64,000 bases of DNA, from NCBI GenBank assembly GCA_041662585.1, contig JBAZSG010000003.1, positions 33,011 through 97,010 of the forward strand, written 5' to 3'. The translations under genes were made by a program, and so were the position numbers. Position 1 is the first letter of the stretch, and every line of letters starts with the position of its first letter. Source of the stretch: Patescibacteria group bacterium (GTDB taxonomy: Bacteria > Patescibacteriota > Patescibacteriia > UBA1558 > GWA2-36-10). The notes below the pieces were generated by a model, which saw nothing but the letters and a program-made list of their open reading frames with translations, was not told the DNA's origin and made no database searches. Positions 47,560 through 61,442 of this stretch are shown here, piece by piece.

Positions 47560-47563
47560 TTAT

Positions 47564-48376
47564 ATGATTACCTTTGCTTGTTTTGTACCTCACTCACCAA
47601 TTCTTATACCAGAGGTAGGTAAAGAAAATTTGGATAAATTAAAAACAACTGTAGATGCTTATAAAAATCTAGAGCAGGATTTGTATTCTGCTAAGCCAGA
47701 TATTATTATTGTGATTTCTCCACATGCTAATGCTCAAGGAGGTAATTTTTTTACCATAAATCAACAACCAAAGTTATTGGCCAATTTTAAAAAATTTGGT
47801 GATTTGGTCACTAAATTACAATTTAATAATGAAATTGGTTTTGGTTATAAAATAAAAGAATCTTGTGAAGATTATTTTCCGATTATGCTGACAGCCGAAC
47901 AAGAGCTTGATTATGGTAGCGCTGTACCTCTCCTCTATTTGACTGAACATTTACCAAATATCAAAATTGTTAGTATTGGTTATGCTGATTTGTCTTATCA
48001 AGAGCATATAAAATTTGGTGAGCTTATTCGTAAACAAACGAATTTGATTGACAAAAGGATAGCTATTGTTGCTTCTGGAGATTTGTCTCACAAATTACAC
48101 AAAGATTCTCCAGCTGGCTATTCATCACGAGCTCAAGAATTTGATCAAGAAATAATCAAATTACTAAATGATACTTCGTCTACCAATAGACAAAACAAAA
48201 TAGACAAACTTGTTGATTTGGATCCAAAGCTTATAGCCGAATCTGGCGAATGTGGCATGCGTTCACTTTTGATACTTTTGGGTATTATCAAAGAACTAAA
48301 CTATCAAGCCAGTAAGCTCAGCTATCAAGCACCTTTTGGTATAGGCTATCTGGTACAAAATTTTGAAATAAAATAA
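47564..48376 (+). CDS. class III extradiol dioxygenase (LigB) / MEMO1-like family protein
   Basis: Family-like N-terminus FACFVPHSPILIPEVG...IIIVISPHA. Low-specificity call. Confidence 0.35.
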   Translation: MITFACFVPHSPILIPEVGKENLDKLKTTVDAYKNLEQDLYSAKPDIIIVISPHANAQGGNFFTINQQPKLLANFKKFGDLVTKLQFNNEIGFGYKIKESCEDYFPIMLTAEQELDYGSAVPLLYLTEHLPNIKIVSIGYADLSYQEHIKFGELIRKQTNLIDKRIAIVASGDLSHKLHKDSPAGYSSRAQEFDQEIIKLLNDTSSTNRQNKIDKLVDLDPKLIAESGECGMRSLLILLGIIKELNYQASKLSYQAPFGIGYLVQNFEIK

Positions 48377-48399
48377 GCTCCTAAACGGAGCTTTTTTTG
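48376..48399. terminator. terminator hairpin agctcctaaacggagct + T7
   Basis: Perfect 6-bp stem followed by TTTTTTTG. It overlaps the stop of the minus-strand ORF. Confidence 0.55.
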
Positions 48400-48647
48400 T
48401 TTTCTGATATTAGCTTGAAAAAATAGCGCCAACGACCAGATCCTTGAGCCAATTCTTTGGTATCATCTAGGCATTTTTCTACAAAATTTCTATTGTAATC
48501 TTTACATACTTTGAATACTGAGTTGCGTTTTGATTGAGGAATAGCCAGCTCTTCTATAATACGCAAAGCCAAATCTTGCCACTGATAAGCTGGTGCTTTA
48601 TTGATGGTATCTTTTTTATTTTTGAATATATCGGCTATTTGTTGCAT
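48381..48647 (-). CDS. hypothetical protein (88 aa)
   Basis: ORF only. Confidence 0.3.
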   Translation of the reverse strand: MQQIADIFKNKKDTINKAPAYQWQDLALRIIEELAIPQSKRNSVFKVCKDYNRNFVEKCLDDTKELAQGSGRWRYFFKLISENKKSSV

Positions 48648-48687
48648 ACATATATACTAGCAAATATATATATATTAGTCATTAGCA

Positions 48688-48716
48688 TTGACAAAATAGA
48701 TAAAATATAGTATTAT
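48688..48716 (+). promoter_or_regulatory. consensus promoter TTGACA-N17-TATTAT (copy 1 of a duplicated promoter)
   Basis: agcattgacaaaatagataaaatatagtattat. An SD AAGGA precedes the ATG at 48753. Confidence 0.5.
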
Positions 48717-48752
48717 ACTCTATAAATAATAAAGCTCTTTCAAGGAATTTAT

Positions 48753-48947
48753 ATGAAACGACTTAAGATCTTTATCTTTATTCTCGTTATTTTGATATTA
48801 TTGCCATTTACTTGTAGCATTTGTAAAAAGAAAAGCAATATTATCATAGATAAAAAATGCCTATTGTCAAACGACTTAGGCTTTTTTAAAAAAAATAATA
48901 TAGCATTGACAAAACAGATAAAATATAGTATATTATATTTATGTTAA
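48753..48947 (+). CDS. small hydrophobic Cys-containing peptide (64 aa); its 3' end runs into the duplicated promoter
   Basis: Own promoter and SD. N-terminal signal/TM segment, CSICKKK...KKC. Confidence 0.35.
   Translation: MKRLKIFIFILVILILLPFTCSICKKKSNIIIDKKCLLSNDLGFFKKNNIALTKQIKYSILYLC
48906..48934 (+). promoter_or_regulatory. consensus promoter TTGACA-N17-TATATT (copy 2), 6 nt before the def ATG (near-leaderless)
   Basis: agcattgacaaaacagataaaatatagtatatt is a 33-bp near-identical repeat of 48684-48716. Confidence 0.5.
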
Positions 48948-49441
48948 AAATAGCCAAATATCCAGATTCAATACTTCGTAAAACTGCTAAAACAATTAGC
49001 GTTTTTGATGCTGAGCTCAAAAAAATGGCTGATGATATGGCCAAAGCTATGTACGATGATGATGGGATTGGTTTGGCCGCTCCCCAAGTCAGTAAAAGTA
49101 TTAGATTGATAGTAATTGGTTTGGGACACGGAGAGTATAAAGCTTATGTAAATCCTAAAATTACTTTTTCTTCTAAAGAAAAAACCACTACCGATGAAGG
49201 CTGTTTATCTATTCCAAAAGTATTTGCCAATGTGATTAGACCAAAAAAAATTAATCTAAAATATCATGATCTTGATGGTAATTTACAAAAAGAAAAATTA
49301 AAAGGTATGAGCGCAGTAGTGGTGCAACATGAAATAGATCATCTAAATGGTATTTTATTTATAGATAGAGCGGAGAAAATAACACAAGGGCAAGAGTTAT
49401 TGGATGCTATGAGAAAACAACTTGATGACCAAGCAAAATAA
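48941..49441 (+). CDS. def: peptide deformylase
   Basis: GIGLAAPQV, EGCLS and HEIDHLNG motifs. Confidence 0.9.
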   Translation: MLKIAKYPDSILRKTAKTISVFDAELKKMADDMAKAMYDDDGIGLAAPQVSKSIRLIVIGLGHGEYKAYVNPKITFSSKEKTTTDEGCLSIPKVFANVIRPKKINLKYHDLDGNLQKEKLKGMSAVVVQHEIDHLNGILFIDRAEKITQGQELLDAMRKQLDDQAK

Positions 49442-50354
49442 ACATATTATATTTTGGGGTACACCAGATTTTTCTGTACCCTCTTTAAATATTCTAAATA
49501 ATTTAAATTTAGTTTCTTTGCTTGTTACTCAGCCCGATAGACCAGCTGGGCGTAATAAAAAATTGTCAGCTAGCCCAGTAAAAATTTATGCTGAGCAAAA
49601 TAATATAGATATTTTAACTCCTGAAAAACTGGATCAAGATTTTATACAAGCTTTAAAAAAATATTTGCCAGCCACTTTTGTAGTAGTAGCCTATGGTAAA
49701 ATAATACCCCAAGAAGTGTTGGATTTATCTGAACTCAGAGCTATAAATATTCATCCATCTTTATTACCAGTATTACGTGGGCCATCTCCGATACAAACAG
49801 CTATTTTAGAGGGTTTTGAATCTACAGGAGTATCTTTGATGCAACTCGATAAAAAGATGGACCATGGGCCCATTTTGGGGCAAATAGAGGCTAAAATAGG
49901 CCCAAATGAGGACTATATTAGTTTGTCTGAGCGTCTATCCAAATTGGGGGCTGACATTTTAGCTAAAAACATCCATAAGTATTTAGATGCTGATATCAGT
50001 CCTCTAGCTCAAGATGATAGCCGTGCTACTTTTTGTAAGCTGATTAGCAAAGAAGATGGTAAGATAGATTGGCAAAAATCAGCTCAAGAAATACACAATC
50101 AAGTACGAGCATATCGAGAATGGCCTGGTGCTTATACCAAGCTAGATGATTTGGCTATAAAGATTTTGCAAACGGAAGTAGTTTTGGAAAATATAAAAAC
50201 TGGCCAAATAAAATTTGATAAAAATAATTTACTAGTTGGTACAGCTAAAGATAGTTTAAAAATATTAGAGCTTCAAGTGGCTGGTAAAAAACCAATGACA
50301 GCTTCAGAATTTATACGTGGTTATCAAAAATATTTAGCCAAATATTTTCAATAA
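49422..50354 (+). CDS. fmt: methionyl-tRNA formyltransferase
   Basis: Formyltransferase N-domain (HPSLLPVLRGPSPIQ) plus C-terminal domain, directly downstream of def. Confidence 0.85.
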   Translation: MMTKQNKHIIFWGTPDFSVPSLNILNNLNLVSLLVTQPDRPAGRNKKLSASPVKIYAEQNNIDILTPEKLDQDFIQALKKYLPATFVVVAYGKIIPQEVLDLSELRAINIHPSLLPVLRGPSPIQTAILEGFESTGVSLMQLDKKMDHGPILGQIEAKIGPNEDYISLSERLSKLGADILAKNIHKYLDADISPLAQDDSRATFCKLISKEDGKIDWQKSAQEIHNQVRAYREWPGAYTKLDDLAIKILQTEVVLENIKTGQIKFDKNNLLVGTAKDSLKILELQVAGKKPMTASEFIRGYQKYLAKYFQ

Positions 50355-50394
50355 AAAACACTCTAATTTATTTAAAGTGTTTTTTTATTTTTAA

Positions 50395-51912
50395 TTAATT
50401 ATTTTTTTTTGGAGTTACATTAAAGCCCAGATATTTACCAAGCATTAGTCTAGTTTGAGCATCTATAGCTGGGATAGAACCAAATAAAATCATGGTAATT
50501 GGGAAAATGGCCCATTGTAAAAGCATTAGTAAATATTTAAATGGCAAAGTGATTTTTGTATTACGATATTTTGTAGGTATGGGTGGCAAGATAATAACAC
50601 TCATAAACGCAATAAGTATCATGCCAATCATACCTGAACGCATCAAATTTTCTAGCATCAAAGGAGCGTTTTGAGTAAGGACGCTGGTTACATTTTGTTT
50701 TTCAGCTAGATACAATGGTAAATAACCCATAAAAAATATCAGTATTGGCGCAGTTGCCCAAGTGTAGATACCTTCAGTTTGATTCCAGATATAAACCCAT
50801 TTTTTATTTTTAGGTATTTTGTTATTTTTGGAAAACTGCCAAACCATATAAGGAAAATGTTCTACTCCATAAGCCCAACGACGCATTTGTTTATATTGAT
50901 TTATCAAACTACGTCTTAGATTGCCTACATGTACAGTATTCATAGATACTGGTATATGCATCGGCATTACTTCATAGTCTCCATCATAGTGAATCAGACA
51001 TTGTAAAAATATACGAGAATCTTCAGTGACTATATTGTTTTGCCAAAAACCAATTTCTACTAGTGCTTGCCAACTCATCGAATGAGATGAAAAAGTAAAT
51101 AGTCTTTCAGGACGAGCCAAATCAGTGAGCAACCAAAAAGTAGTACCATTGGCTACTATTCTGGTGATTATATCTGATTCCCAAATATTGTTGTGGTAAA
51201 AAGCCATTGGTTGAAAACTAGCTCTATATGGATTTTTATGGGATATAAATTTGTGTGTAAGATAAGCAAAATAATCTGGATGAGAAATGGTATCTATGTC
51301 AAAAGTTGAAACAATTATTTTTTTGTAATCAAGACCTTGAGTATCGATATATTTTTTTACTTCATAACCAGCATGATAAAGATTTGAGCCCTTGCCTTTT
51401 ATCTCCCCTTTTAGATTATCTGGATGGAGAGTGATGATGATATTGTAAAAAATATTGTTATATTTTTGTTTTATTTGTTCAGCAATTTTAGCAAATTGAT
51501 CTTGATAGCGCTCTTCACCAGCCAAAACAATTATCATTTTTTGTTTATCGTATTTTGTTTTAAAGCTAAGGTTATCAAAAGTATTGTCTACTACTTCAAA
51601 AGGTTCTCCAGCTGTAGGTAAAAATACTACATGATAATATTCAGACCAATGTTTATTGTGAGTATGTTGAAGAAAATTCCACCAATCTATCTTACGGGCT
51701 TTAAGATATTTAAACCATGAAATAAGTAAAAAGATGAGCATATAAGTAATGCGTAAGACAAAATAAATATCAAAAATAATCACAAAATAGATACCATAAA
51801 GTGGTGATATTAAAGAAAGTAAAATAGTAAAAATAAAAGTAAACCAAACAGCCAAGCCTGGTATTATTTCTAAACTTCTGTATTTATAATAATCTTTTTG
51901 TGCTTTATTCAT
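50395..51912 (-). CDS. membrane-embedded processive family-2 glycosyltransferase (cellulose/chitin-synthase-like)
   Basis: N- and C-terminal TM bundles with a cytoplasmic GT-A domain carrying DxD, TED (VTEDSRIF) and QxxRW (QYKQMRRWAYG) motifs. Confidence 0.6.
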   Translation of the reverse strand: MNKAQKDYYKYRSLEIIPGLAVWFTFIFTILLSLISPLYGIYFVIIFDIYFVLRITYMLIFLLISWFKYLKARKIDWWNFLQHTHNKHWSEYYHVVFLPTAGEPFEVVDNTFDNLSFKTKYDKQKMIIVLAGEERYQDQFAKIAEQIKQKYNNIFYNIIITLHPDNLKGEIKGKGSNLYHAGYEVKKYIDTQGLDYKKIIVSTFDIDTISHPDYFAYLTHKFISHKNPYRASFQPMAFYHNNIWESDIITRIVANGTTFWLLTDLARPERLFTFSSHSMSWQALVEIGFWQNNIVTEDSRIFLQCLIHYDGDYEVMPMHIPVSMNTVHVGNLRRSLINQYKQMRRWAYGVEHFPYMVWQFSKNNKIPKNKKWVYIWNQTEGIYTWATAPILIFFMGYLPLYLAEKQNVTSVLTQNAPLMLENLMRSGMIGMILIAFMSVIILPPIPTKYRNTKITLPFKYLLMLLQWAIFPITMILFGSIPAIDAQTRLMLGKYLGFNVTPKKNN

Positions 51913-52988
51913 AAAATATATTGATCACTTTCTATGCCGACTGCTTCAGAGATATTTTTAAAATTGTCTTGTTTCAACAAATTTTCTAGTTGTTTATTTA
52001 TAATATTTATGGCTTTTGGTCCATTATAGATCAAACCAGTAATCAACTGTACTAGATTTGCTCCAGCTTTTATTTTTTTGTAAGCATCATAGCCTGAAAA
52101 GACGCCTCCTGTGCCGATAATTTTATATTTACCTTCGCTATTTTTGTAAAGATAAGCAATTATTTTATCTACTCTATCTGTGAGTGCTTGCCCAGATACA
52201 CCACCTGGCTTGTCTTTGTGTTTTGATTTTAAATTCAAAACACTTCTTTCTTTGGCTAGGTTACAGGCAATGATAGCAGAAATTTGGTATTTTTTAGCCA
52301 AATAAATAATATCATCTATTTCCTCTTTTAATAAATCTTGTCCAATTTTTAGCCAAATAGGTTTTTGTTGGATATTTATAGATTGGACTCTGTCTAAAAT
52401 TGGTTCTAGTAATATTTTTGATTGTAAACCAGAAAAGTTTTTGACATTTGGACAACTCAAGTTGATAGTGATGATATCAGCATATTCAGACAAAAGATCA
52501 AAACTAGCTTGATAATCATCAGCAGCCTGCTCCATAGCTACAGCATTACTTTTGGCAATACTAGCAGAGATTATACCGGTTTTTTTCTTGAGTTGTTCTA
52601 CTATTTTTTTAGCACCTTTATTACATAATCCATAATAAACCACCAAACCTTTATCCTGGGGCAATCTCCATAGTCTTGGTTTTGGATTGCCACTTTGCTC
52701 TTGATAAGTGATAGAACCGATTTCAGCCCAAGAAAATCCCATAGCTGACCAAGTATTTATAGCTTGTCCATTTTTGTCGAGTCCTGCTGCTAGACCAATT
52801 GGATTTTTGAAATACAAAGAAAATAATTTTTGACTTAGTACAGGTGAAGTATAATCTAATGCAGATTTTAATATTTTGTTTAGTGTTTTTGATTTACTAA
52901 AAAAAGATAAACCCCATAGAGTAAAATTGTGTATTTTTTCTGGGTCAATTAGAAATAAAATTGGTCGGACCATCCTTTGATAAAACAT
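51909..52988 (-). CDS. pyrD: dihydroorotate dehydrogenase (class 2, quinone-type)
   Basis: MFYQRMVRPILFLIDPEKIH...NPIGLAAGLDKNG...PRLWRL... matches class 2 DHODH. Confidence 0.7.
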   Translation of the reverse strand: MFYQRMVRPILFLIDPEKIHNFTLWGLSFFSKSKTLNKILKSALDYTSPVLSQKLFSLYFKNPIGLAAGLDKNGQAINTWSAMGFSWAEIGSITYQEQSGNPKPRLWRLPQDKGLVVYYGLCNKGAKKIVEQLKKKTGIISASIAKSNAVAMEQAADDYQASFDLLSEYADIITINLSCPNVKNFSGLQSKILLEPILDRVQSINIQQKPIWLKIGQDLLKEEIDDIIYLAKKYQISAIIACNLAKERSVLNLKSKHKDKPGGVSGQALTDRVDKIIAYLYKNSEGKYKIIGTGGVFSGYDAYKKIKAGANLVQLITGLIYNGPKAINIINKQLENLLKQDNFKNISEAVGIESDQYIL

Positions 52989-52989
52989 T

Positions 52990-53265
52990 TTATTTTTGTA
53001 ATATATTTTTTAAGTGCTGTTTAGATTCTTTTAATATTTCTAAGTATAAATTTTTTATAAATTTTGGATCCAAATCATTATCTATAGCTTTTTGTTTTAC
53101 ATTTTTTAATATTTGTTTTTCTCTTTTAGAATCATAAATTTTATTGATATCTTTGAAAGTAGCTATTTCTTTTAGCAAGCTAAATCTACTAGCTAAGGCA
53201 TCAATAATGTTTTTGTCAGCTAGGTCTATTTTTTGTCTAATTTTGGCTAGTTTATCTTTGGGCAT
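52990..53265 (-). CDS. monofunctional chorismate mutase (AroQ class)
   Basis: 91-aa all-helical protein with the LAKIRQKIDLADKNIIDALASRFSLLKEIA pattern. Confidence 0.5.
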   Translation of the reverse strand: MPKDKLAKIRQKIDLADKNIIDALASRFSLLKEIATFKDINKIYDSKREKQILKNVKQKAIDNDLDPKFIKNLYLEILKESKQHLKNILQK

Positions 53266-53327
53266 AGTGATTTATCAGCTATAACATAGCAGAAAATTGT
53301 TTATTTTTCAAGGCTAAAAAAGACTCT

Positions 53328-53789
53328 TTAAAGAGTCTCTAGATCTAGCTTATGTTTAATTACTTTATTGTGTTTGTCAAAAAGAAAAGAAGCCTTAAAA
53401 CTTTGTCCTTTTAGAAATATAGGCAGCCAATACTTATCAGCATCCCACATTTTTTTATAGGGAATATTGTCTATATTATACCACTCGGGTTTCATTTCTT
53501 CGCTCTCTTGTTCTTGACCAACAAAATTATCACAATGAAAAACATGCACCTCAGAATCTTGATTTTTATCTTGCCAAGCAAAATCTATTATAGCCAGCTT
53601 TTTTATAGTTTTAAGCTCTAGTGAACTTTCTTCAAAAACTTCTCTTATTGCTGATTCTTCTACAGTTTCTCCAGTTTCAAGTTTGCCACCAAAACCATTG
53701 AGTTTGCCCATACCAAAACCTCTCTTTTTAAAACCAAGAAGTATTTTATTATCTTTAGTTATCAAAACTAATGTTAAGATTGTTTTCAT
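53328..53789 (-). CDS. NUDIX hydrolase
   Basis: Nudix box GFGGKLETGETVEESAIREVFEESSL. Confidence 0.8.
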   Translation of the reverse strand: MKTILTLVLITKDNKILLGFKKRGFGMGKLNGFGGKLETGETVEESAIREVFEESSLELKTIKKLAIIDFAWQDKNQDSEVHVFHCDNFVGQEQESEEMKPEWYNIDNIPYKKMWDADKYWLPIFLKGQSFKASFLFDKHNKVIKHKLDLETL

Positions 53790-53904
53790 AAATATATTAT
53801 ATAAAGCGTATAATATTTTGCTTAATTAAGCAATAAATATTTAAATAGCCGGGCTATATTTAATATTTATTTGGCTAATATTAGCTAAGTAATATATCTT
53901 ACTC

Positions 53905-53933
53905 TTGACAAAATATAAAATAAGGTGTATAAT
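53905..53933 (+). promoter_or_regulatory. consensus promoter TTGACA-N17-TATAAT, about 170 nt upstream of the GC-rich gene at 54108
   Basis: cttgacaaaatataaaataaggtgtataat. Confidence 0.5.
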
Positions 53934-54107
53934 AATACATTAAATAAAATAGTTTTGTGCTTGCCCATTACTTTATATCCTATTTTATATCGTTAGTGTG
54001 TAAACATAAAACCTTTTTATAGGTTTGTACCATAACAACAAATCGAAGAAAAAAGATCAAAGAATAAGCTAAAGTTTCTAACCACACTTTTAGGAAGGGG
54101 TACGAAA

Positions 54108-54974
54108 ATGCGTACACGTAATTTCAGTTTTTTGGCGATGGCTTTCGTAGCCATCATGCTCACTGTCGTTTCTACTCAGGCTAAGGTGGTCCTCACGCCG
54201 ACCACAGTTGACTCTGTCGGAGTCGAAAGAGTCGGAGACAGCACCTTGCTCAAGGTGCCGGCGACAATAGAGGTCTACGATTCCTTATTTGTTGACAGCG
54301 TCAACACTTATCGAATCAATGATTTGGTTGAAGCTATTAAGCAAGTCGATTCGACTTTCGATGGTAGCGAAGCCGCCGTCAAGGCTCGCATCACACAGCG
54401 CGAAGCTCGGGCCAAGGCCGAGGCCGACAGTCTGGCAGCTGCTGAAGCCGCCGAATTGAAGAAGCTTCACAAGCAGTGGAGCAAAGAAGTGAAACCGCTG
54501 TCGTATGACAGCGTCTGGGTATGGGCTTTGATTCCTGATAACGATACCGCTTATATGAAAGCGGAATGGTTGGCCGAGCGTTATAGCTTGACACTGAGTC
54601 AAGCTGACATCTACAACCTTGATTCGAAAGAGATCATTGAAGAGCTCAAAGCTCAACTTCGGCAGCGACAGAAAATCAATGCCACAGTCGATACTCGCAT
54701 CGCCAAATCAATCGCTGGACTGCAAAGTCAGCTCAACGCTTTGAGCGATACCCTGTCTCAGACCCGGGCCGGCGTGGAGCTCGCATACAAGTTGGCGGAT
54801 GAAGCCAATTGCAAGGCCGAGGCCAATACGGCCGAAATATCAAGGCTCTGGAGCGTTTGGGAAGCGCTCGAAGTACAGGACAGTGTTTCCACTGTCCCTA
54901 ACCCCGAGACCACCACACCTCCCCCCGCTCCCGACTCTTCCAATGCATCTTTGGTCAAAAACGACGGCAAATAA
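54108..54974 (+). CDS. GC-rich secreted protein (signal peptide, central coiled coil, Pro/Thr-rich C-terminus), unknown function
   Basis: MRTRNFSFLAMAFVAIMLTVVSTQA signal peptide. Codon GC3 bias and GC content are sharply different from the flanks. SD GGAAGGGG. Confidence 0.5.
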   Translation: MRTRNFSFLAMAFVAIMLTVVSTQAKVVLTPTTVDSVGVERVGDSTLLKVPATIEVYDSLFVDSVNTYRINDLVEAIKQVDSTFDGSEAAVKARITQREARAKAEADSLAAAEAAELKKLHKQWSKEVKPLSYDSVWVWALIPDNDTAYMKAEWLAERYSLTLSQADIYNLDSKEIIEELKAQLRQRQKINATVDTRIAKSIAGLQSQLNALSDTLSQTRAGVELAYKLADEANCKAEANTAEISRLWSVWEALEVQDSVSTVPNPETTTPPPAPDSSNASLVKNDGK

Positions 54975-54997
54975 ACGCCATCAAGCTTTCTTCGATT

Positions 54998-55036
54998 GGA
55001 GGCCTGCTATCCATTAGCGGGCCTCCTTTCTTTTAC
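54998..55036 (+). terminator. GC-rich hairpin terminator (ggaggcc...ggcctcc + TTTCTTTT)
   Basis: Inverted repeat followed by a T-run. Convergent with the end of the giant gene. Confidence 0.55.
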
Positions 55037-55091
55037 AAAAAAACAGAGCTGATAAATATAGCCCTATTTTTTTAAACTATTTTTTAGAAAT

Positions 55092-58000
55092 TTATTTGGC
55101 TAATTGTTTATCTATTTTGGATATAATATTAGCATTTTCTTCAACAGCTTTGTTTATTTTATCAAGCGAAAAATTTGAATTGTTTGGAGGACCCTCTTTT
55201 AAGATTGTTTGCATTTTTGCCAATTCTGTTTTTAAATTCTGTAATTCAGTATGGTCCATCTGATCAAATTCACTGGTGGAAACTAATTCTTTATTGTAAA
55301 AGCCTTTGTACAATTCATTCATCGTAATGCTATTAATTTCAGCTACAGGAGTTTCTTCGTCAGGACTTAAGGCATAATCTTCAATATTATCAAGTTGGTC
55401 GTCAGTTGACATTTCATTGGTACTTGGTGGAAGCTGATCTATTTCTTCACCTTGAGCTTCTAGTTGTTTTACTAAGTCAGTGATTCTCTCCAATCTTTCT
55501 TGCTCAGTGCCTTCATTACTAATATTATATTTTTCAAACAAATCAGCTCTTTCAGTCAATACATTGTTGGCTAGACCAATGGCTATTTCTTCATAATCTG
55601 GCCGGCTAGTGTCAATATCAGGATTCCAAGATTTTAATAGTTCCATAGCTGTTTCTGGCTTAATATTGGAAACATTTTCTATTTCAGGATTTATTGTAGT
55701 TTCTGGCATAGCTTTTTCTACAACAGCCGCTTCTTCATCGTTTGCTACTGTTTCAGCTTTTGAAGAGTTTTTTTCCATGTTGTTTACTTTGATTTCAGCT
55801 ACATCCATATCATGGCGTAATTTTTCTATAGTATTTTTTGTAGCCAATTCTTTGATAGCTTCCTCTATAGTTATGGATTTGTCATGAACATCACCTTTAT
55901 TGATAGCCTCTTGAATAAATTCTTGCATGTGACTTCTATGGTGTCTTTCTAGTAGCTGGTTATTTTGTTCAGAATAACCTTCTATTTTTTCATCTAGTAA
56001 ATCAGAGACACTTTCTTTTTTAAGAAAATCCCACTCAGCTTTACCATAGTCATCAACAAAACCAAGCTTGGTTAGAGTAGTTTCTAGCTCGGTATTAATA
56101 TCATATTCTGGAGTAGCCAATGCCGGAATATTTTCTATTATTTTTTGTGATTCAAAATTGGCTAGCTGTGTATTTAATCGTTCTGTCATCTCAGCCTTAG
56201 TATCTTCTATTAGTGATAAAAGTTTTTCAGCTTTTACTTCAGAAACTCTGTCAATCAATTCTTCACCAGCTTCTTTATTGTTCAAAATAATTGGATTCTC
56301 TAGATTTGTGTCACCTACTCTGACTACCTCATTGTCTTTAATCAGGATTTCTTCATTATCAATCACAAAAGTGCCAGAATCTTCATCTTTAAATGCTAGG
56401 TCAGTAGCTAGTTCACCGAGCTCAGTATTATTTAAGGTAGCTTGAAACAATCTATTTTCAGCGGCATCTATTTGTTGTTGATCTAGCTTTATCTGTTCGG
56501 CAGCTATATTTTCTGGTTTGAGCATGTCACCCCAAGTTGCATCTTTGATATTGTCAATATAGGCTACTGCCCCTGAATTTTCAATATTTTCTGTAGTAAT
56601 AGTTTCTTCAGCATGAGCGACTAAAACGCGGACAATATTGTCTTGAAAACCATCATAATCATTTACCACTACCTTACCATTTTCAACAGAAACATATTTT
56701 TGAAAATCTTCGGCACTAATACCAGCGATATCATGACCTTCAGACAATTTTGTCATGTTGGCTCCAATATTTAATATTTGAGCTGCTTCTACATTGGTGA
56801 TTTCGTCGCCAAAATGCATACTATCAATACCTACTCGATAAAATACTTGCTCTAGATGTTTTGGGGCACCATCTTTAGCAAGCTCCAAAGATAAATTACG
56901 TTTTATGGATTCTCCAGTTTTGGTTTCTGGTTCATCTTTTTCAATTTCTTTAAATCCAGTATGCTTTATAGATGCGTGTTCAATGGAAAATTTTTGTTCA
57001 TCGTTTATGAGACCAGATTGGTACAATTTTTCAAGCAAAGCAGTAGCTTCTCCAGCTTTGGCTCCGTGTATTTGCTCAGCAATTTTATTTAATTCTTCGC
57101 TTGTAATATCTCCATCAAATGAGTTGATACCAAACTCTTTTTCAAGCTCCAATCTGTCTTGAACTTCTATGACAGTTTTGATATCAATTTGACTGTTTTC
57201 AATGGCATTTTTAGCTATTTCTTCATTACTAAGGTTTAATTCTTGACCAACATGCGTTGCTATTGCTTGTTTGTATTGTTCCAAGGTCAAAGTACCATCA
57301 TCTAATAAATGATTTAAAGCGTGACGAGCATTGATTGCTTCTTGAGATTTTGGGTCATTGTCTAATTCACAAACCACCTTATCCAAATCTTCAATCGTTA
57401 CTCCTTTTTCAAAGATATTTATTATTTTTTCAACTTCTGGATTGATTGTTTCTTCGGTTTTTTGTTCATTAGTGGTATCTGGCTGAGTCGTTTGCGTAGT
57501 ATCTATATGTTCAAGATTATTCCAATCTGGAGGTGAAGATTTTTGATTTTCTAATTTATAAAATAGCTTACTTTCTTCATTTGCAGTTTCGTGTATTGGA
57601 TTTTTAATTTCAGGAGATTGTGTTGTAGTATCTGACTGATTAGTTTCAGTATTTTGTGTTGTATCTGAAGTAATTATTTTTTCTTCAAGTTCTTCTTTGG
57701 TTTCTGAAACTGGTTTTGGTATTTCTACATGAGAAGTATTAGTAGTTGCTGTGTCTTGATTTTCGTCAGCGTCAGTAACAATATTTTTAATATCTTCTAC
57801 TATTGTTTCTGTACGAGCTGCAGCAGCTCCTGCATTTAAAGTAACCCTATTAAGTACATTATCAAGACCGGCATTTATATCATAGCTTCCTCCATTCATA
57901 GTTGTGCTACCAAAACTAACCAATTCACTACCAATGGCACCAGCCAAAGCTCCTTTTGCTCCTTCGTAGCCAGCTTTAGCAAAAACTTTGAGTTTTTCTT

Positions 58001-61000
58001 CGCGACTTAAGTTCCAAAAAGCTTTTGATAAACCTATCAAACTTTTTCTTTTTCTTTCTTTCTCAGCAATATCGGCAGCTTCAGCTATTTGCATTGCTCT
58101 AGCTCCTACTATCTTTTGAGCAAAATCATCTTTTTCCATAGCATCATCCATTCCAGCAAGCTGTGCCTCTTGTATCATTTTGACTTCCAAAGCATCAATT
58201 TTTAATTCAATTTTGGCTCTTTCAGTTTCTTTGATATCAGGTAATTTTATTCTAGCTCTAGCTTCATGAATCAATGTTTCAGCTTGAGCAAAAGTATCTG
58301 TAGTTAATTCAAATTGCTCAAATTCACCAAGAATTTCTCTGGTAGTTTTGACTTCGCTTTTACTTTTGGCAAGTATTTCAGACCTCAGAGAACCAAGCAT
58401 TCTTTGAGAACCCATGTAAGCAGCGCCTATTAAAACATCAGTATTAGCAGTTCCAGCGATGGCACCAGAAGTAAAACCTTTGGCCAAGGCCTGCATAAAG
58501 CTTTCTGGTGGAGTTGTACCAAATATTTTTGATACATAAGACATTCCATATGAGCTTTTGGCTTTATCATCAATTTCATCAAACTTTTCTTGAGCCACTA
58601 CATCACCTAAAATGACATTCATTTCACGAGCTACCATCAAATGTGCTCTGGTTATTAATTCTTTTTTTCCATCTTCATTTAATACTTCACCATCTTTTAG
58701 TGTTTCTAGTGTCTTTTCTATTTGATAGGAAACATATTCTTCAAGGGCATTATTTTCACTAAGATTTTTTATTAACTCTTGTCTTTTTTTTATCTTATCT
58801 TTTTTCAAAGAACCTTCATTCTCTCTAGCACTTTGTGTTATTCTAAGTAACTCCTGGATTGCTTCAAGCTTGGCTTTTTTTTCTTCAAAGTTTTCTCCAC
58901 TAAATGTCCTATTTATGGCTTCATCATTAAATGACAATTCATAAGATTTAGCACTCTGTATTTTTAATTTTTCTTTTTGACTGATATCAAATTCAATCAA
59001 ATCAGACATATCACTTTTTAATTGAGCAAATAGATCTGTTTCACTAAGTCCCTTGTCTGTCAATTTTTCAGCTTTTTTTGCCAAATTTTTCATACCCTTG
59101 GCATTGAATTTTTCAAAGCCTTTACCAAGTGCGTAATTTAAACCAGATGAAAAAGCACCAGCAGCTCCACCAACAGCCATTTTTATAAACAAAGCAGAAC
59201 TACTCATTGTTTTTGCTACCAGCATAGTACCCTTCATAATTATTGCATATTGAGCACCACCTAGTATTCCTTTGGCAAATTTTTTGCCTTCTTTTTTTAG
59301 AGTAGATTCAGGATCTTTATTGGCTGCAATATGTTCTTGCATGATTACTTCTGATTGTAAACAAAAATTTTCAAAGTATTTGTTGATAGCATCTTGCTTA
59401 TAAAGCTCACTAATGTGCATTTCTTGCAATAATTCATCTGTCATCATAGCATTAAATTTTTCTTTTAATGCGTCAATATCTTTTAAGTCTTCTAAAGTCA
59501 AATTTGCAAAAAATTCATTAAATTCTTTGCTTTTAATTCTTTCTGCCTGATTATCTATTTTAAATAATTCAGCTATCTTATCACGAAATCCAGCTGATCT
59601 TGTAGCCACATCCAAAGTTTCTTCCCCACTTTGTATTTTAGTAATAACATTTTTTAATATTTCTGGTGTAAAAAGTTGTTCTGATCCTTGAATAGATATA
59701 TTTTCGCTATCTATTATAGCTATAAGTTCTTCCAAAGATTTGGCGTTTTCAATCAATGCTCTAGCTTTTTCCTCTTCCATTATTGCTTCAGGCTTTGTTT
59801 CAGCTGCAGGAGTTTCTTCAATCTTTTGTGTATCTTCTGTTTTTGGTGTTTCTTCAGGTGCTGGTATTTCAAAAGTTTCTGATGTTTCTTCAAGCAATTT
59901 TTCGGTAGGTCTTTTTGTATTTAAAATTGCTGATAAGGGGTATATAACTTCTCTGTATCTTGCAATTTCTTTTTCTGAAGATGCTTTTTCTTCCCCAGTT
60001 TTTTCTTTTGGTTTACCATAAGTATCATTGTTATCATCAGGTTCATAAGAATAGTCTAATTCACCATTTAGATTGTTAACAAAATAAGTTAAAACAGCCT
60101 CCATTTCTTGGAAATTGCCAGATTCCAATTGTTTTATTTGAGTATTAACTTGTTTTTCCATTGCTTGATAAAAATCTAGAGCACCTTCTTTATATGGTTC
60201 TTTACTTTTTAAAATATCTTTTAAGAGGTTAACGCCTTTTTGTATTATTTCCTGATCTGTCTGTTCACTTTCTGTTGGAGTTTCGATAAGAGGTCTTTTT
60301 GTATTTAAAATTGCTGATAAGGGGTATATAACTTCTCTGTATCTTGCAATTTCTTTTTCTGAAGATGCTTTTTCTTCAGGATTGTAAGAGTAATGCAATT
60401 CATTATCTAAGTTGTTAATAAAATAAGTTAAAACAGCTTCCATTTCATTAAAATCATCAGACTCTAGTTGTTTGATTAGAGTATTGATTTCTCTTTCCCT
60501 TTCTTTATAAAAATTTGGGTCTTGTTCTTTATATTGCTCTGCACTTTTTAAAATATCTTTTAAGAGGTCAACACCTTTTTGTATTATTTCTTGATCTGTT
60601 TTCTCAACTTCAATATTTTCAGAGCTTGTTTCAACTACTGGTGTTTTTAGAACATCTGGTGTCTCGGGTATTTCAGGGGTTTCTGGAGTTTTTTCGTCAG
60701 GTGTTATATTTTCTAAAACTGGCTCTGAATTTTTTTGGGTTTTTGTTTTCAAGTATCCTCCTTTTTTTCTTTTACTTTGTTCAACAAAACCATCAACTAA
60801 ATCCTCAACTAACCTATCGGTAGCTGGTATTTTTGATTTATTGGGTATTTTTGGTACTGTAAGTGGAGTTTGATAATCAACATTTTCAGAATCAATAACT
60901 TGTCCAGAAGCTGGCTCATAGTGGTGGTGGTCAGTAACTTTTTTAGAACTTCTACCATATGTCATAGCAACTTCACCTATAGCTTTTTTAGCTTCCATAG

Positions 61001-61241
61001 CAGCTATTTCAGCACCTTGATTGATGTTGTCTAGAGCAATTTTTTCTGTATCATCAAGCCCAGATTTAATATCTTCGGGTAATTGTTTTAAATTAAGAAT
61101 TTCATCATCAATATTTTGAGTTGTTTCTGTGACAACTGTTTCTAAACTAGGAATAGTTTTTTCATCTTCATAATTTCCTGATAGAAGTTCTCTTAACTCG
61201 TCATCTGGTAATAGACCAGTCTTTATTTTTTTTCTAGTCAT
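55092..61241 (-). CDS. giant (2049 aa) acidic repeat-containing protein, unknown function
   Basis: Single uninterrupted ORF. There is an internal ~120-aa tandem repeat (DQEIIQKGV(D/N)LLKDILKS...EKASSEKEIARYREVIYPLSAILNTKRP) with an 88-nt stretch identical at 59907-59994 and 60293-60380. Gly/Ala-rich hydrophobic segments occur mid-protein. Confidence 0.65.
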   Translation of the reverse strand: MTRKKIKTGLLPDDELRELLSGNYEDEKTIPSLETVVTETTQNIDDEILNLKQLPEDIKSGLDDTEKIALDNINQGAEIAAMEAKKAIGEVAMTYGRSSKKVTDHHHYEPASGQVIDSENVDYQTPLTVPKIPNKSKIPATDRLVEDLVDGFVEQSKRKKGGYLKTKTQKNSEPVLENITPDEKTPETPEIPETPDVLKTPVVETSSENIEVEKTDQEIIQKGVDLLKDILKSAEQYKEQDPNFYKEREREINTLIKQLESDDFNEMEAVLTYFINNLDNELHYSYNPEEKASSEKEIARYREVIYPLSAILNTKRPLIETPTESEQTDQEIIQKGVNLLKDILKSKEPYKEGALDFYQAMEKQVNTQIKQLESGNFQEMEAVLTYFVNNLNGELDYSYEPDDNNDTYGKPKEKTGEEKASSEKEIARYREVIYPLSAILNTKRPTEKLLEETSETFEIPAPEETPKTEDTQKIEETPAAETKPEAIMEEEKARALIENAKSLEELIAIIDSENISIQGSEQLFTPEILKNVITKIQSGEETLDVATRSAGFRDKIAELFKIDNQAERIKSKEFNEFFANLTLEDLKDIDALKEKFNAMMTDELLQEMHISELYKQDAINKYFENFCLQSEVIMQEHIAANKDPESTLKKEGKKFAKGILGGAQYAIIMKGTMLVAKTMSSSALFIKMAVGGAAGAFSSGLNYALGKGFEKFNAKGMKNLAKKAEKLTDKGLSETDLFAQLKSDMSDLIEFDISQKEKLKIQSAKSYELSFNDEAINRTFSGENFEEKKAKLEAIQELLRITQSARENEGSLKKDKIKKRQELIKNLSENNALEEYVSYQIEKTLETLKDGEVLNEDGKKELITRAHLMVAREMNVILGDVVAQEKFDEIDDKAKSSYGMSYVSKIFGTTPPESFMQALAKGFTSGAIAGTANTDVLIGAAYMGSQRMLGSLRSEILAKSKSEVKTTREILGEFEQFELTTDTFAQAETLIHEARARIKLPDIKETERAKIELKIDALEVKMIQEAQLAGMDDAMEKDDFAQKIVGARAMQIAEAADIAEKERKRKSLIGLSKAFWNLSREEKLKVFAKAGYEGAKGALAGAIGSELVSFGSTTMNGGSYDINAGLDNVLNRVTLNAGAAAARTETIVEDIKNIVTDADENQDTATTNTSHVEIPKPVSETKEELEEKIITSDTTQNTETNQSDTTTQSPEIKNPIHETANEESKLFYKLENQKSSPPDWNNLEHIDTTQTTQPDTTNEQKTEETINPEVEKIINIFEKGVTIEDLDKVVCELDNDPKSQEAINARHALNHLLDDGTLTLEQYKQAIATHVGQELNLSNEEIAKNAIENSQIDIKTVIEVQDRLELEKEFGINSFDGDITSEELNKIAEQIHGAKAGEATALLEKLYQSGLINDEQKFSIEHASIKHTGFKEIEKDEPETKTGESIKRNLSLELAKDGAPKHLEQVFYRVGIDSMHFGDEITNVEAAQILNIGANMTKLSEGHDIAGISAEDFQKYVSVENGKVVVNDYDGFQDNIVRVLVAHAEETITTENIENSGAVAYIDNIKDATWGDMLKPENIAAEQIKLDQQQIDAAENRLFQATLNNTELGELATDLAFKDEDSGTFVIDNEEILIKDNEVVRVGDTNLENPIILNNKEAGEELIDRVSEVKAEKLLSLIEDTKAEMTERLNTQLANFESQKIIENIPALATPEYDINTELETTLTKLGFVDDYGKAEWDFLKKESVSDLLDEKIEGYSEQNNQLLERHHRSHMQEFIQEAINKGDVHDKSITIEEAIKELATKNTIEKLRHDMDVAEIKVNNMEKNSSKAETVANDEEAAVVEKAMPETTINPEIENVSNIKPETAMELLKSWNPDIDTSRPDYEEIAIGLANNVLTERADLFEKYNISNEGTEQERLERITDLVKQLEAQGEEIDQLPPSTNEMSTDDQLDNIEDYALSPDEETPVAEINSITMNELYKGFYNKELVSTSEFDQMDHTELQNLKTELAKMQTILKEGPPNNSNFSLDKINKAVEENANIISKIDKQLAK

Positions 61242-61256: not shown

Positions 61257-61442
61257 TTAATATCTATCTTTTAACTCTTGAAGTTTTTCAGCTATTTTTT
61301 GATCATCAATTCTTTGAGCAATGGCTTTAACTATTTTATCCTTGTCTTGTCTTAATCTATTCAATTTGATAACAAATAAATCATAAATCTGCTGGATTTC
61401 TATAATGCTATCTTGAGTTGATTTATTATTAGTTTGTGGCAT
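61257..61442 (-). CDS. hypothetical small protein (61 aa)
   Basis: ORF immediately upstream of the giant gene on the same strand. Confidence 0.3.
   Translation of the reverse strand: MPQTNNKSTQDSIIEIQQIYDLFVIKLNRLRQDKDKIVKAIAQRIDDQKIAEKLQELKDRY

Follow-up and report, generated by a model that had tools for sequence, protein, structure and literature searches.

Genomic islets and 'moron'-like cassettes are recognised by a sharp composition anomaly, a promoter and terminator of their own, an orphan-like product and an orientation opposed to that of the surrounding genes, and foreign and orphan genes mostly have a higher AT content than the genome that hosts them. Genes for abundant envelope proteins, such as S-layer proteins and Braun lipoprotein Lpp, are monocistronic and combine a strong promoter, or several in tandem, with a long 5' leader, a signal peptide and an efficient terminator; Lpp itself is small and secreted, forms a trimeric coiled coil and has a very stable mRNA. 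Trimeric coiled coils also build fibres and adhesins such as reovirus sigma-1, P22 gp26 and the stalks of trimeric autotransporters, and in the giant-protein loci of CPR bacteria and other episymbionts a very large ORF that evolves fast and has few domains is accompanied by small conserved genes. Here we compare with these systems a GC-rich gene from a 64-kb stretch of the genome of an ultra-small bacterium of the Patescibacteria group (hereafter the window, 64,000 nucleotides), which an earlier note on this DNA had described as the third of three high-GC cassettes.

The window has 32.2% GC overall and its profile is not uniform: three main stretches exceed 0.42 in 300-nt windows (8351-9300, 12051-13450 and 54001-55150), and three further short stretches barely pass the threshold, at 0.43. 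In the third main stretch (island 3), read at a resolution of 100 nt, GC is 0.30-0.36 before ~54100, where it jumps to 0.48-0.64, and returns to ≤0.32 at ~55000-55050. The ORF located here (54108-54974, plus strand) encodes 288 aa with 52% GC against 32% for the genome, and its GC contents at the three codon positions are 0.55, 0.42 and 0.58. With the GC3 of 41 ordinary window genes at 0.221 ± 0.029, the ORF lies at z = +12. All of its synonymous classes are shifted toward GC (NNC 0.51 vs 0.14, NNG 0.50 vs 0.18), and at four-fold sites G and C are up in proportion. The anomaly to which the name 'cassette' or 'island' referred is real, and the composition is atypical for the host as in a horizontal island, but the meaning of a foreign cassette is unsupported (see below). 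An assembly chimera was ruled out, because both junctions of island 3 are the same in the Logan and ENA assemblies, made by two assemblers (Logan sequence of SRR6484324 matches window positions 45109-59936 with 100% identity), and because orthologous loci exist. An RNA gene was also ruled out as the source of the GC-rich patch: ARAGORN found no tRNA or tmRNA and Rfam gave no match at gathering score in the window, nor did a search of 53780-55100 against Rfam even at E ≤ 1. There are no mobility genes, integrase or tRNA near the GC-rich DNA, and its neighbours are housekeeping genes.

The signals proposed for this gene were all recovered. The sigma-70-type promoter (53905-53933, plus strand) matches the consensus TTGACA-N17-TATAAT at 12 of 12 positions, and the only two perfect copies in the 64 kb, where 0.49 would be expected by chance, are those of islands 2 and 3. 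The promoter core is conserved in two related loci, L005 (as two tandem copies) and L010, and TTGACA...TAnnnT is present 86-248 nt upstream of the ATG in all seven family loci. About 20 nt upstream of the -35 hexamer lies a palindrome, GGCTAATATTAGCT (53873-53886), a candidate operator or upstream element. It recurs upstream of the homologue promoters in L003 (1282-1293) and L010 (AGCTAATATTAGCT) and as a near-copy in L006, and the window holds eight matches to it at ≤2 mismatches against 1.5 expected, those checked being intergenic. The earlier note had proposed an AT-rich leader of ~170 nt; from the presumed transcription start, the 5' untranslated leader (53940-54107, plus strand) would measure ~168 nt, at 27% GC, and it contains the Shine-Dalgarno sequence AGGAAGGGG (54092-54100). 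Promoter, palindrome and leader are conserved and AT-rich among the family loci, whose leaders stay at 21-39% GC; the leader's conservation with L005 and L010 is partial, covering the promoter and short blocks only. A riboswitch or structured leader was ruled out, since the leader folds no better than shuffled sequences (z = -1.6) and has no Rfam match at E ≤ 1. The intrinsic terminator (54998-55036, plus strand) consists of a 12-bp GC-rich stem (54998-55026) and the T-tract TTTCTTTT, with a folding energy of -27.7 kcal/mol (z = -5.3 vs shuffles), and equivalent GC-rich hairpins are located 3' of the gene in all other family loci. The whole unit is bracketed by a perfect 15-nt direct repeat (at 53865 and 55090) and also flanked by an imperfect 23-nt inverted repeat. 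Because the direct repeat overlaps half of the dispersed palindrome (TTTGGCTAAT, five copies vs 0.7 expected) and the gene is syntenic in relatives, we do not read the repeat as an insertion scar, and a target-site duplication is unconvincing.

The 288-aa product belongs to an unnamed Patescibacteria family of predicted secreted helical or coiled-coil proteins, as judged from composition, phmmer and a family alignment (A1). Its N-terminus is predicted to be a classical n-h-c signal peptide of the Sec type (residues 1-25; 54108-54182, plus strand), with MRTRNFSFLAMAFVAIMLTVVSTQA cleaved from KVV at the predicted site between TQA and KV. By inspection and a hydropathy scan, all seven homologues have a hydrophobic h-region and, after it, an A-x-A-like site, in agreement with the signal peptide noticed earlier, and a lipobox Cys (L-[AS]-[GA]-C) near the cleavage site is absent in the window protein and most homologues. 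The core motif W-x2-E-V-x-P-L-x2-D-x-V-W-x-W (residues 124-139; 54477-54524, plus strand) occurs in five of the seven homologues; E127, V128, D134 and W139 are invariant in the alignment, and the region has an AF2 pLDDT of 75-90. The AF2 model, of modest quality as a whole (pLDDT 61), places helices at residues 88-128 and 173-234, the latter a long helix that is probably a coiled coil (54624-54809, plus strand), and the family profile weakly matches trimeric coiled coils over residues ~170-246 (reovirus sigma-1, 5.5e-5; P22 gp26, 1e-3). The coiled-coil character claimed for the product is probable. The Pro/Thr-rich tail is also there: the C-terminal 30 residues are rich in Pro, Thr and Ser, and the tail (residues 257-288; 54876-54971, plus strand) is probably disordered (pLDDT <50) and is not conserved among homologues. 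Foldseek with the AF2 model found no PDB match below E = 1.5, Pfam, NCBIfam, PHROGs and PADLOC gave no significant family, and Pfam and NCBIfam detected no S-layer/SLH or anchoring domain. The product would be a Sec-exported, mostly alpha-helical coiled-coil protein of ~26 kDa in its mature form.

An exhaustive phmmer search returned matches P0002-P0006 with E from 3e-16 to 5e-4, and the family comprises only six clusters among 1.84 billion representatives; the three clusters carrying a source name, including that of the query, are all from 'Patescibacteria group bacterium'. Word-indexed protein searches recovered nothing but the query with the window protein, and one extra member with the family profile. 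No homologue was found outside Patescibacteria or in phages, plasmids or viral contigs, and the family is small, very fast-evolving and found only in Patescibacteria. Its members are 240-330 aa long, and their indels keep the frame. In L005, to which the locus from a second sample (L018) is identical, the gene order is the same as in the window, with DHODH, chorismate mutase (CM) and NUDIX genes leading to the gene and, convergent with it, the giant ORF, a 61-aa ORF, DUF5663, Maf and SecA. In L010 (Ca. Komeilibacteria RIFOXYD1_FULL_37_29), the DUF5663 and giant genes again converge on the homologue, so that two other Komeilibacteria-type genomes have the same syntenic slot occupied. In more distant Patescibacteria (L007/8, L009 and L003), the pairing with the giant gene is kept and the other flank is different. 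We met no empty or patchy sites among these relatives (L005, L010, L003, L007/8, L009). Island 3 is thus very probably an inherited secreted-protein gene and not a foreign cassette.

The GC excess is kept as well. In 7/7 loci, the GC3 of the homologue is well above that of its neighbours (0.58 vs 0.19-0.21 in the window, 0.67 vs 0.23-0.33 in L005, and 0.43 vs 0.20-0.23, 0.68 vs 0.32-0.39, 0.74 vs 0.33-0.44 and 0.39 vs 0.17-0.24 in other loci), and a MAD-based scan marks it as the sole GC3 outlier in L005, L006, L007 and L009 and below the cut-off in L010. The orthologous gene exceeds its genome by 10-20 GC points (six in the weakest case) and by 0.2-0.45 in GC3. The step in GC lies ≤22 nt from the ATG in five of seven loci, the rise coinciding with the ATG rather than with the transcription start, and just past the terminator in 5/7. 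Between the window and L005, four-fold sites are near saturation, with 42-48% identical vs 31-34% expected at random (22% vs 27% expected in NUDIX, with n = 23 sites only). With synonymous sites near saturation, an imported composition should have ameliorated; amelioration toward the host composition is not seen, the GC3 values of 0.58 and 0.67 persisting in both. The protein itself is the fastest-evolving of its neighbourhood: it is 34% identical between the window and L005, against 60-81% for the neighbours (exceptions are chorismate mutase at 47%, the 61-aa ORF at 54% and the giant gene at 45%), and its L010 and L005 versions share 25% identity. The nucleotide sequence of the ORF is not conserved beyond the protein requirement. 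The composition therefore does not reflect a donor; it belongs to the translated region, and its persistence in all lineages points to active maintenance.

The other two main GC-rich genes of the window share much of this design, as had been claimed. Island 1 (8572-9150, minus strand; GC3 0.72) encodes a product with a histidine-phosphatase fold (AF2 pLDDT 81; Foldseek PDB E = 3.5e-6 to PhoE, CobC and PGAM), and island 2 (12222-12719, minus strand; GC3 0.61) lies behind a perfect consensus promoter at 12767-12795 (minus strand). Islands 1-3 have in common a native-type TTGACA promoter and a GC-rich hairpin terminator, while their products are unrelated, the difference in product class being also as reported. 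Their GC3 z-scores are +12 to +17. As to the shared donor signature that was to be looked for, the islands do have a common codon signature, the RSCU of the three being correlated among themselves (r = 0.44-0.69) and negatively with host genes; that it came from a donor is not supported, since none was found and the homologues of island 3 in syntenic relatives are GC3-elevated too. Islands 1 and 2 are conserved in L011 and are GC-rich there too. All three genes are oriented against the local gene strings, probably head-on to replication; islands 1 and 2 share the plus-strand GC skew of the surrounding region, a sign that they may be coded on the lagging strand. It is possible, if somewhat doubtful, that Patescibacteria of the Komeilibacteria type contain a limited set of genes in which selection or a local repair bias keeps the GC of the translated region far above the genomic level. 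Candidate members in the window are 8572-9150, 12222-12719, 12907-13167 and 54108-54974, each monocistronic with a strong TTGACA-type promoter (perfect consensus at islands 2 and 3) and its own hairpin terminator, and those tested against relatives evolve unusually fast.

Downstream, the gene converges with the giant gene, as the earlier note had it: a 2049-aa ORF (55092-61241, minus strand), the conserved neighbour of the family, lies tail-to-tail with 54108-54974. Directly upstream of the giant gene is a 61-aa ORF (61257-61442, minus strand; called gene L001:17150-17335) that is conserved in L005 and L007, and the string begins with a 111-aa DUF5663-like ORF (61448-61783, minus strand; PF18908 at E = 7.7e-4, below the Pfam cut-off). 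DUF5663 also appears in unmarked precomputed matches on the L007, L008 and L009 products and in a second alignment (A2). The homologue is tail-to-tail with a giant ORF in the six loci whose contig extends past the gene; L006 ends at the contig edge. Giant ORFs of 1397-1833 aa stand beside it in L005, L007/8, L009 and L010, and a truncated one in L003. A giant ORF with an upstream DUF5663-type gene is found in the window, L005, L007/8, L009 and L010, and the ~60-aa ORF in the window, L005 and L007/8. BLASTP does not align the giant proteins of distant loci, and only their C-terminal ends are similar (...EGPP...IDKxLAK). The giant proteins lack an N-terminal signal peptide, their clear membrane segments are few, and no Pfam domain was detected in the giant ORF. 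PADLOC found nothing in the gene and module save a chance-level ZorA match of the DUF5663 ORF (E = 0.0075). These data define a conserved four-gene neighbourhood of DUF5663, ~60-aa ORF, giant ORF and convergent, predicted secreted coiled-coil protein, and make it a plausible candidate for the surface or host-attachment machinery of these episymbionts. From this positional link, the 288-aa protein may act beyond the cytoplasmic membrane, partnering or assisting a giant envelope or host-contact protein.

To what the GC excess is due may be indicated by RNA folding. Compared with synonymous-codon shuffles, the folding energies of the seven family members have z-scores of -4.2, -5.0, -5.2, -6.0, -2.4, -2.5 and -2.1, and those of islands 1 and 2 are -3.3 and -5.0, while the mean over 30 control genes is -1.65 (Mann-Whitney p = 2e-4; p = 0.008 vs GC-matched genes); three of the seven family members are within the control range. 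The extra folding survives local shuffles in blocks of 40 codons. Selection for a stable, highly folded mRNA may be the cause of the high GC, and is the most likely one, a view we hold only tentatively; the folding evidence for selection on GC is suggestive only, and GC-biased repair linked to recombination, or codon-level control, would account for the same GC pattern. On the mRNA-stability reading, the gene, with signals of strong expression in its consensus promoter and in the tandem promoters of L005, would be highly expressed, and stability would be the selected trait. Five short genes at 21.9-25.3 kb, presumed from their position to encode ribosomal proteins, have a GC3 of 0.15-0.23; high expression therefore does not generally go with high GC, and translational selection as in highly expressed genes was rejected as a general explanation.

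A rival that acts on the same codons is control by codon class, in which rare GC-ending (especially C-ending) codons throttle or time translation, for instance by slowing elongation for Sec targeting or folding or by tying expression to a particular tRNA supply, with folding as a by-product. It would explain why the GC rise starts at the ATG, why every synonymous class is shifted and why the islands have one codon signature, opposed to that of host genes, despite unrelated products. We nevertheless find it unlikely: a consensus promoter with poor codons is a contradictory design for a needed protein, the extra folding survives shuffles that keep codon usage, and islands 1 and 2 encode cytoplasmic-type enzymes, so that secretion is not the common reason. 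Alternatively, the gene might be a hot spot either of allele exchange, if its product is a diversifying surface protein, or of fork-restart recombination, if it is strongly transcribed and meets the replication fork head-on; there GC-biased repair would raise GC and speed protein change. This fits the fastest-evolving protein of the neighbourhood, the proportional rise of G and C, the conserved promoter/leader and terminator flanks, which could be homology arms, and three genes facing their local strings with, at islands 1 and 2, a skew that points to lagging-strand coding, the direction of replication being taken from skew only. We regard it as quite improbable, because it predicts no extra mRNA structure and because the leader, in the same transcript and within conversion range, stays AT-rich. 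Moreover, GC-biased conversion in bacteria shifts GC3 by a few percent, and a rise from 0.2 to 0.6-0.7 is too large for it.

The remaining rivals concern what the GC-rich DNA is. GC-rich patches in AT-rich genomes are often structural RNAs, the folding density here is -0.36 kcal/mol per nt against ~-0.2 in host genes, with z-scores down to -6, and GC-rich DNA yields long ORFs on both strands, all of which would suit a chiefly structured non-coding or dual-function RNA with a secondary or spurious ORF. Conservation is at the protein level (signal peptide, Trp-rich core, lengths, in-frame indels) and not in the nucleotides beyond protein needs, and Rfam is empty, making this reading very unlikely. 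A recent foreign cassette, delivered from a GC-rich donor under a native-style promoter with all three islands from one donor, draws on the GC3 z-scores, the common codon signature, the orphan-like proteins and the direct repeat. Against it are the orthologues in the same slot in L005 and L010 and beside the giant-gene module elsewhere, all GC3-elevated, the saturated synonymous sites, the conservation of islands 1 and 2 in L011, the confinement of homologues to Patescibacteria, the overlap of the repeat with a dispersed palindromic motif, and the lack of an integrase or tRNA; no donor of matching composition was found to carry the family, the loci read having 0.32-0.44 GC. We consider it exceedingly improbable.

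With modest confidence, we favour vertical inheritance of a gene with a strong promoter and with coding GC under selection, whose secreted coiled-coil product would be a partner of the giant-protein module. On this model, 54108-54974 would be a genuine monocistronic gene of a Komeilibacteria-like member of the Patescibacteria (CPR), passed on vertically and probably transcribed from the consensus promoter with its upstream palindrome, through the ~170-nt leader, to the strong hairpin. Its GC-rich coding sequence may be kept through selection for a strongly folded, long-lived mRNA of a strongly transcribed gene that faces its neighbours, and its product would be exported as partner of the giant envelope or host-contact protein. 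It is routine to take a GC-rich patch in an AT-rich genome for foreign DNA, and here that reading fails; the persistence of the GC excess past synonymous saturation implies that something other than ancestry sets the composition. If selection on mRNA or decoding is the cause, it offers a testable view of gene-specific expression control in organisms without genetic handling, and calls for caution with composition-based calls of horizontal transfer in CPR genomes. The high-GC class, if true, would be an undescribed layer of post-transcriptional control, with ultra-stable or specially decoded mRNAs, or alternatively a mutational footprint of transcription-replication conflict in reduced genomes, and the protein made from island 3 would serve as secreted partner to a giant host-contact protein.

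Compared with the known systems, the locus is like the giant-protein loci of CPR bacteria and other episymbionts in its large ORF and its small DUF5663 and ~60-aa companions, and neither this module nor its convergent secreted partner nor the GC phenomenon turned up in our literature search, which also gave no match for 'DUF5663'. The likeness to trimeric fibres and adhesins is a weak profile match (E 5.5e-5 to 1e-3) confined to the heptad-repeat region and probably compositional, with no head or anchor domain and no Foldseek match at E < 1. With S-layer genes and Lpp the gene shares its layout, but the product lacks a lipobox Cys and any SLH or other S-layer domain, and is related to neither in sequence or fold. 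Genomic islets and 'morons' have the same anomaly, signals, orphan-like product and opposed orientation; here the search for a donor, a mobility gene, a tRNA or a genuine target duplication came up empty, and, unlike most foreign and orphan genes, this gene is GC-richer than its host, occupies the same slot in diverged relatives and retains its anomaly beyond synonymous saturation.

The window has a GC content of 32.2%, and in 300-nt windows three main stretches rise above 0.42 GC (8351-9300, 12051-13450 and 54001-55150), while three further short stretches only just exceed this cut-off, at 0.43. Resolved to 100 nt, the last of the main stretches climbs from ~0.30-0.36 to 0.48-0.64 near 54100 and drops again at ~55000-55050. 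It is occupied by a single plus-strand ORF of 288 aa (54108-54974), the island 3 gene, with GC of 0.55, 0.42 and 0.58 at the three codon positions and a GC3 at z = +12 relative to 41 ordinary window genes (0.221 ± 0.029). A perfect TTGACA-N17-TATAAT promoter (53905-53933, plus strand) precedes the gene; across the 64 kb the only other exact consensus match stands ahead of island 2. Between promoter and gene lies a leader of ~168 nt with 27% GC and the Shine-Dalgarno sequence AGGAAGGGG. Its product starts with a signal peptide (MRTRNFSFLAMAFVAIMLTVVSTQA, followed by KVV) and has a tail rich in Pro, Thr and Ser. The terminator is a GC-rich hairpin with a 12-bp stem and a T-tract (54998-55036, plus strand; -27.7 kcal/mol, z = -5.3), beyond which lies the convergent giant ORF of 2049 aa (55092-61241, minus strand). 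An earlier note had read from the sequence a GC-rich stretch with a consensus promoter, a leader of ~170 nt, a hairpin terminator, a signal-peptide product with a Pro/Thr-rich tail and convergence with the giant gene, and all of this is confirmed by compositional statistics and sequence. A 702-kb contig in the public records carries the protein as 'MAG: hypothetical protein WCS88_03040 [Patescibacteria group bacterium]'. We rejected an assembly artefact because window 45109-59936, both junctions included, is matched at 100% identity by an independently built Logan assembly of SRR6484324.

In the protein searches, of the kind that the earlier note had suggested, a word-indexed search matched only the protein itself; phmmer, run exhaustively against 1.84 billion cluster representatives, added five relatives, the best (P0002) with E = 3e-16 and 37% identity and the others (P0003-P0006) with E from 1.6e-6 to 5.4e-4. 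Family proteins are 240-330 aa long and all have N-terminal signal peptides; in the 29-kb Logan contig L005 the full-length gene starts at 9905 and its product with MHTKLFSIILMTVLVVLIASVSNANA, followed by KVVL. Five of the seven members have the core W-x2-E-V-x-P-L-x2-D-x-V-W-x-W in common. The island 3 protein has no significant match in Pfam, PHROGs, NCBIfam or PADLOC. Its AlphaFold2 model, based on six aligned sequences, is largely helical; the long helices span 88-128 and 173-234, and confidence in the core is moderate (mean pLDDT 61). Foldseek found no PDB match with E < 1.5, and a profile search of PDB sequences gave only weak matches, to the trimeric coiled coils of reovirus sigma-1 and P22 gp26. 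Every source-named member comes from a 'Patescibacteria group bacterium', and no relatives were found in phages, plasmids or viral contigs. The gene belongs to an unnamed, lineage-restricted family of predicted secreted proteins in a conserved giant-gene neighbourhood.

Gene order around the L005 homologue is identical to that of the window: Def-Fmt and, further on, DHODH-chorismate mutase-NUDIX lead to the gene, which faces the giant ORF (1833 aa in L005), 61-aa and 111-aa ORFs and, further on, Maf and SecA. In Candidatus Komeilibacteria bacterium RIFOXYD1_FULL_37_29 (L010), reached via its DUF5663 neighbour, a 301-aa signal-peptide ORF stands tail-to-tail with a giant ORF, carries the same upstream palindrome, promoter and leader blocks as the window, and matches the L005 homologue at E = 3e-14 and 25% identity. 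More distant genomes have a different upstream flank (Dus, an ATPase, DnaX), and there the gene always faces, tail-to-tail, a giant ORF (1397-1740 aa) that comes after a DUF5663 gene (L006, at a contig edge, could not be judged); in L007/8 a ~60-aa ORF lies between the two. BLASTP cannot align the strongly diverged giant proteins with one another, yet their C-terminal ends are alike (...EGPP...IDKxLAK). The conserved convergence implies that the island 3 gene is one arm of a four-gene neighbourhood and no free-standing cassette; it is a vertically inherited, fast-evolving gene permanently paired with the DUF5663/giant-gene string. Within the window's giant gene, a perfect 87-nt direct repeat (59907-59993 and 60291-60377), where the overlapping Logan contig L002 stops, sits in an internal duplication of ~130 residues ('TDQEIIQKGV.LLKDILKS...EKASSEKEIARYREVIYPLSAILNTKRP'). 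Downstream of the L006 homologue, tandem ~100-nt repeats with tRNA-like 3' ends ('...ggttcgaatccaagtcccggagcca'; L006 10930-11421) may represent an array of tRNA genes, or repeats derived from tRNA, where the contig ends.

The GC excess travels with the gene: compared with its neighbours, the homologue has GC3 of 0.58 vs 0.19-0.21 in the window, 0.67 vs 0.23-0.33 in L005, 0.43 vs 0.20-0.23 in L003, 0.68 vs 0.32-0.39 in L006, 0.74 vs 0.33-0.44 in L007 and 0.39 vs 0.17-0.24 in L009; the L010 homologue has GC ~0.49 (GC3 0.54) vs 0.36 for its locus. In a MAD-based scan the homologue was the sole GC3 outlier in L005, L006, L007 and L009, and fell below the cut-off in L010, perhaps because a longer ORF including the AT-rich leader was scanned. 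In five of seven loci the largest GC up-step lies within 22 nt of the start codon, and in five of seven the down-step comes 12-58 nt past the stop, at the terminator end; GC of the 200 nt ahead of ATG is 21-39% in the seven loci. Every synonymous class is shifted in the island 3 gene relative to the host (NNC 0.51 vs 0.14 and NNG 0.50 vs 0.18 in two-fold boxes; C 0.39 vs 0.14 and G 0.18 vs 0.07 at four-fold sites), and Leu and Arg usage moves to CTN and CGN codons. The island 3 protein is the fastest-evolving of its neighbourhood (34% identity between window and L005, vs 60-81% for neighbours other than chorismate mutase, 47%, the 61-aa ORF, 54%, and the giant gene, 45%). At four-fold sites of identical residues, window and L005 agree at 42-48% vs a random expectation of 31-34% (NUDIX, with 23 sites, is an exception at 22% vs 27%); the synonymous positions have been through more than one round of turnover. 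An imported composition would thus be expected to decay to host level, and no decay is seen in any lineage.

A foreign island with a donor signature, as the earlier note implied, is therefore not supported. Composition is all that the gene has in common with a transferred islet, four of five defining features tested failing, and a recent transfer is unlikely: synteny across relatives contradicts it, as do the conservation of the AT-rich promoter, palindrome and leader, the survival of the GC excess through synonymous turnover, and the finding of no donor or mobility gene. Two perfect 15-nt copies of ATTTATTTGGCTAAT in direct orientation (53865 and 55090) flank the unit; we rejected them as a target duplication because their core TTTGGCTAAT is half of a dispersed palindrome, GGCTAATATTAGCY, and the downstream copy codes for the giant protein's last residues. 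The palindrome has eight matches in the window with up to two mismatches (1.5 expected), and the half-site five (0.7 expected). Sites with the core GCTAAT/ATTAGC lie at 53873-53886, 4451, 21412, 41764, 41896 and 41951 in the window, at L003 1282-1293 and at L010 ~16495-16510; the copies checked are intergenic, and in several genomes one stands ~20 nt upstream of the -35 element of the family promoter, making it a candidate operator for a Patescibacteria regulator.

To test a prediction of selection acting on the RNA, we compared the folding of native ORFs with synonymous-codon permutations in which protein, codon usage and GC were held constant; the native ORFs proved the more stably folded. 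The seven family members gave z of -4.2, -5.0, -5.2, -6.0, -2.4, -2.5 and -2.1, and islands 1 and 2 gave -3.3 and -5.0, vs +0.6 to -3.05 for 19 ordinary genes of the same genomes and +0.6 to -3.9 for 11 genes from genomes of 44-50% GC (Mann-Whitney p = 4e-4 for family vs AT-rich neighbours, 0.008 for family vs GC-matched genes and 2e-4 for all GC-rich genes vs all controls). The excess remains when shuffles are confined to 40-codon blocks (z -3.0 to -4.1), and folding density is -0.36 kcal/mol per nt vs ~-0.2 in host genes. The difference is significant groupwise, but since three members overlap the control range we regard it as suggestive.

Islands 1 (8572-9150, minus strand) and 2 (12222-12719, minus strand) share further traits with island 3. 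The common design described by the earlier note holds for the TTGACA promoters (TTGACA-N17-TATACT in island 1) and GC-rich hairpin terminators, as does the difference in products; a donor signature is not supported. All three islands are monocistronic and oriented opposite to adjacent gene strings. Plus-strand GC skew is positive to ~40 kb and negative past ~52 kb, and islands 1 and 2 follow the plus-strand skew of the surrounding region although they are minus-strand genes; from skew alone, all three are probably lagging-strand, head-on genes. Skew is ~+0.2 before 40 kb, gene orientation and skew switch within ~40000-52000, and the cumulative maximum near 50 kb looks like a replication terminus. 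A 300-nt gap between convergent genes (41700-41960), with two strong hairpin terminators, ~200 nt of moderately GC-rich sequence and no Rfam match, could be a small RNA or dif-type site.

Islands 1 and 2 are retained, still GC-rich, in L011, a 549-kb contig of a relative (DNA ~78-87% identical; island-1 protein 58%, the adjoining 602-aa protein 80%) whose island-1 homologue (L011 5221-5799, minus strand) NCBI names Ca. Komeilibacteria RIFOXYC1_FULL_37_11. The divergent island-1 product, with 'RHT' and 'HDP' motifs and no Pfam match, is modelled as a histidine-phosphatase fold (pLDDT 81, pTM 0.81; Foldseek E = 3.5e-6 to phosphoglycerate mutase, CobC and PhoE), and its location between PEP-utilising/PPDK-like genes suggests that it serves as a phospho-histidine phosphatase for their swivel domains. 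The 165-aa island-2 product ('LHGDK', 'GTGRRHRHVAATL') looks like a SixA-like histidine phosphatase with the catalytic Arg of the RHG motif replaced; it has no BLASTP similarity to island 1 and no match among PDB sequences. Nearby, at least three genes contain a C-terminal PEP-utiliser mobile-domain segment (3183-3443, 8308-8502, 10961-11133; ~70-76% nucleotide identity to L011 copies); these are paralogues in a small family of PPDK/PEP-synthase-like genes that are split or fragmentary. L011 lacks window segments 12797-13300 and 7144-8502, and with them a GC-rich unit (12850-13310) with its own TTGACA promoter, hairpin terminator and 86-aa ORF (12907-13167) or short alternative frame, and a 452-aa PEP-utiliser-domain gene (7144-8502); each is a recent gain or loss beside conserved islands.

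The products of islands 1 and 2 are unrelated to that of island 3, which excludes secretion as the common cause of high GC. Ordinary translational selection is likewise excluded, since five short genes at 21.9-25.3 kb, which we take from their position to be ribosomal-protein genes, have GC3 of only 0.15-0.23. A structured-RNA function is unlikely; no tRNA, tmRNA or Rfam family matched the window, with no Rfam match at the island 3 locus even at E <= 1. Two rivals concern the excess itself, namely codon-class control of translation, to be set beside the shift of every synonymous class, and recombination- or repair-linked bias at a strongly transcribed head-on gene, to be set beside the probable lagging-strand position. 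We favor a gene that would be strongly transcribed from its near-consensus signals and whose persistently GC-rich, over-folded coding region may be kept for a stable, nuclease-resistant mRNA. Sec would export its helical signal-peptide product, which might act beyond the membrane together with the giant protein or on it; the rapid divergence of both would fit a role at the cell surface or in host contact. The function would be ordinary in kind. The anomaly in GC, found in a few further genes of this genome too, is actively maintained, a persistence that is unusual and testable with public data.

In the library searched we found no paper on the DUF5663/giant-gene module or on persistent GC-rich genes in Patescibacteria, an absence that is no proof of novelty. 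S-layer genes and Lpp, whose stable mRNA encodes a small, secreted, trimeric coiled coil, have the expression layout of abundant envelope proteins, and tandem strong promoters are known from very highly expressed envelope-protein genes; the L005 orthologue has a tandem pair of consensus promoters 63 nt apart (L005 9655-9750). The island 3 protein differs from Lpp in having no lipobox and from S-layer proteins in having no S-layer domain, with no detectable homology to either. In its expression layout the island 3 gene resembles the genes of these abundant envelope proteins.
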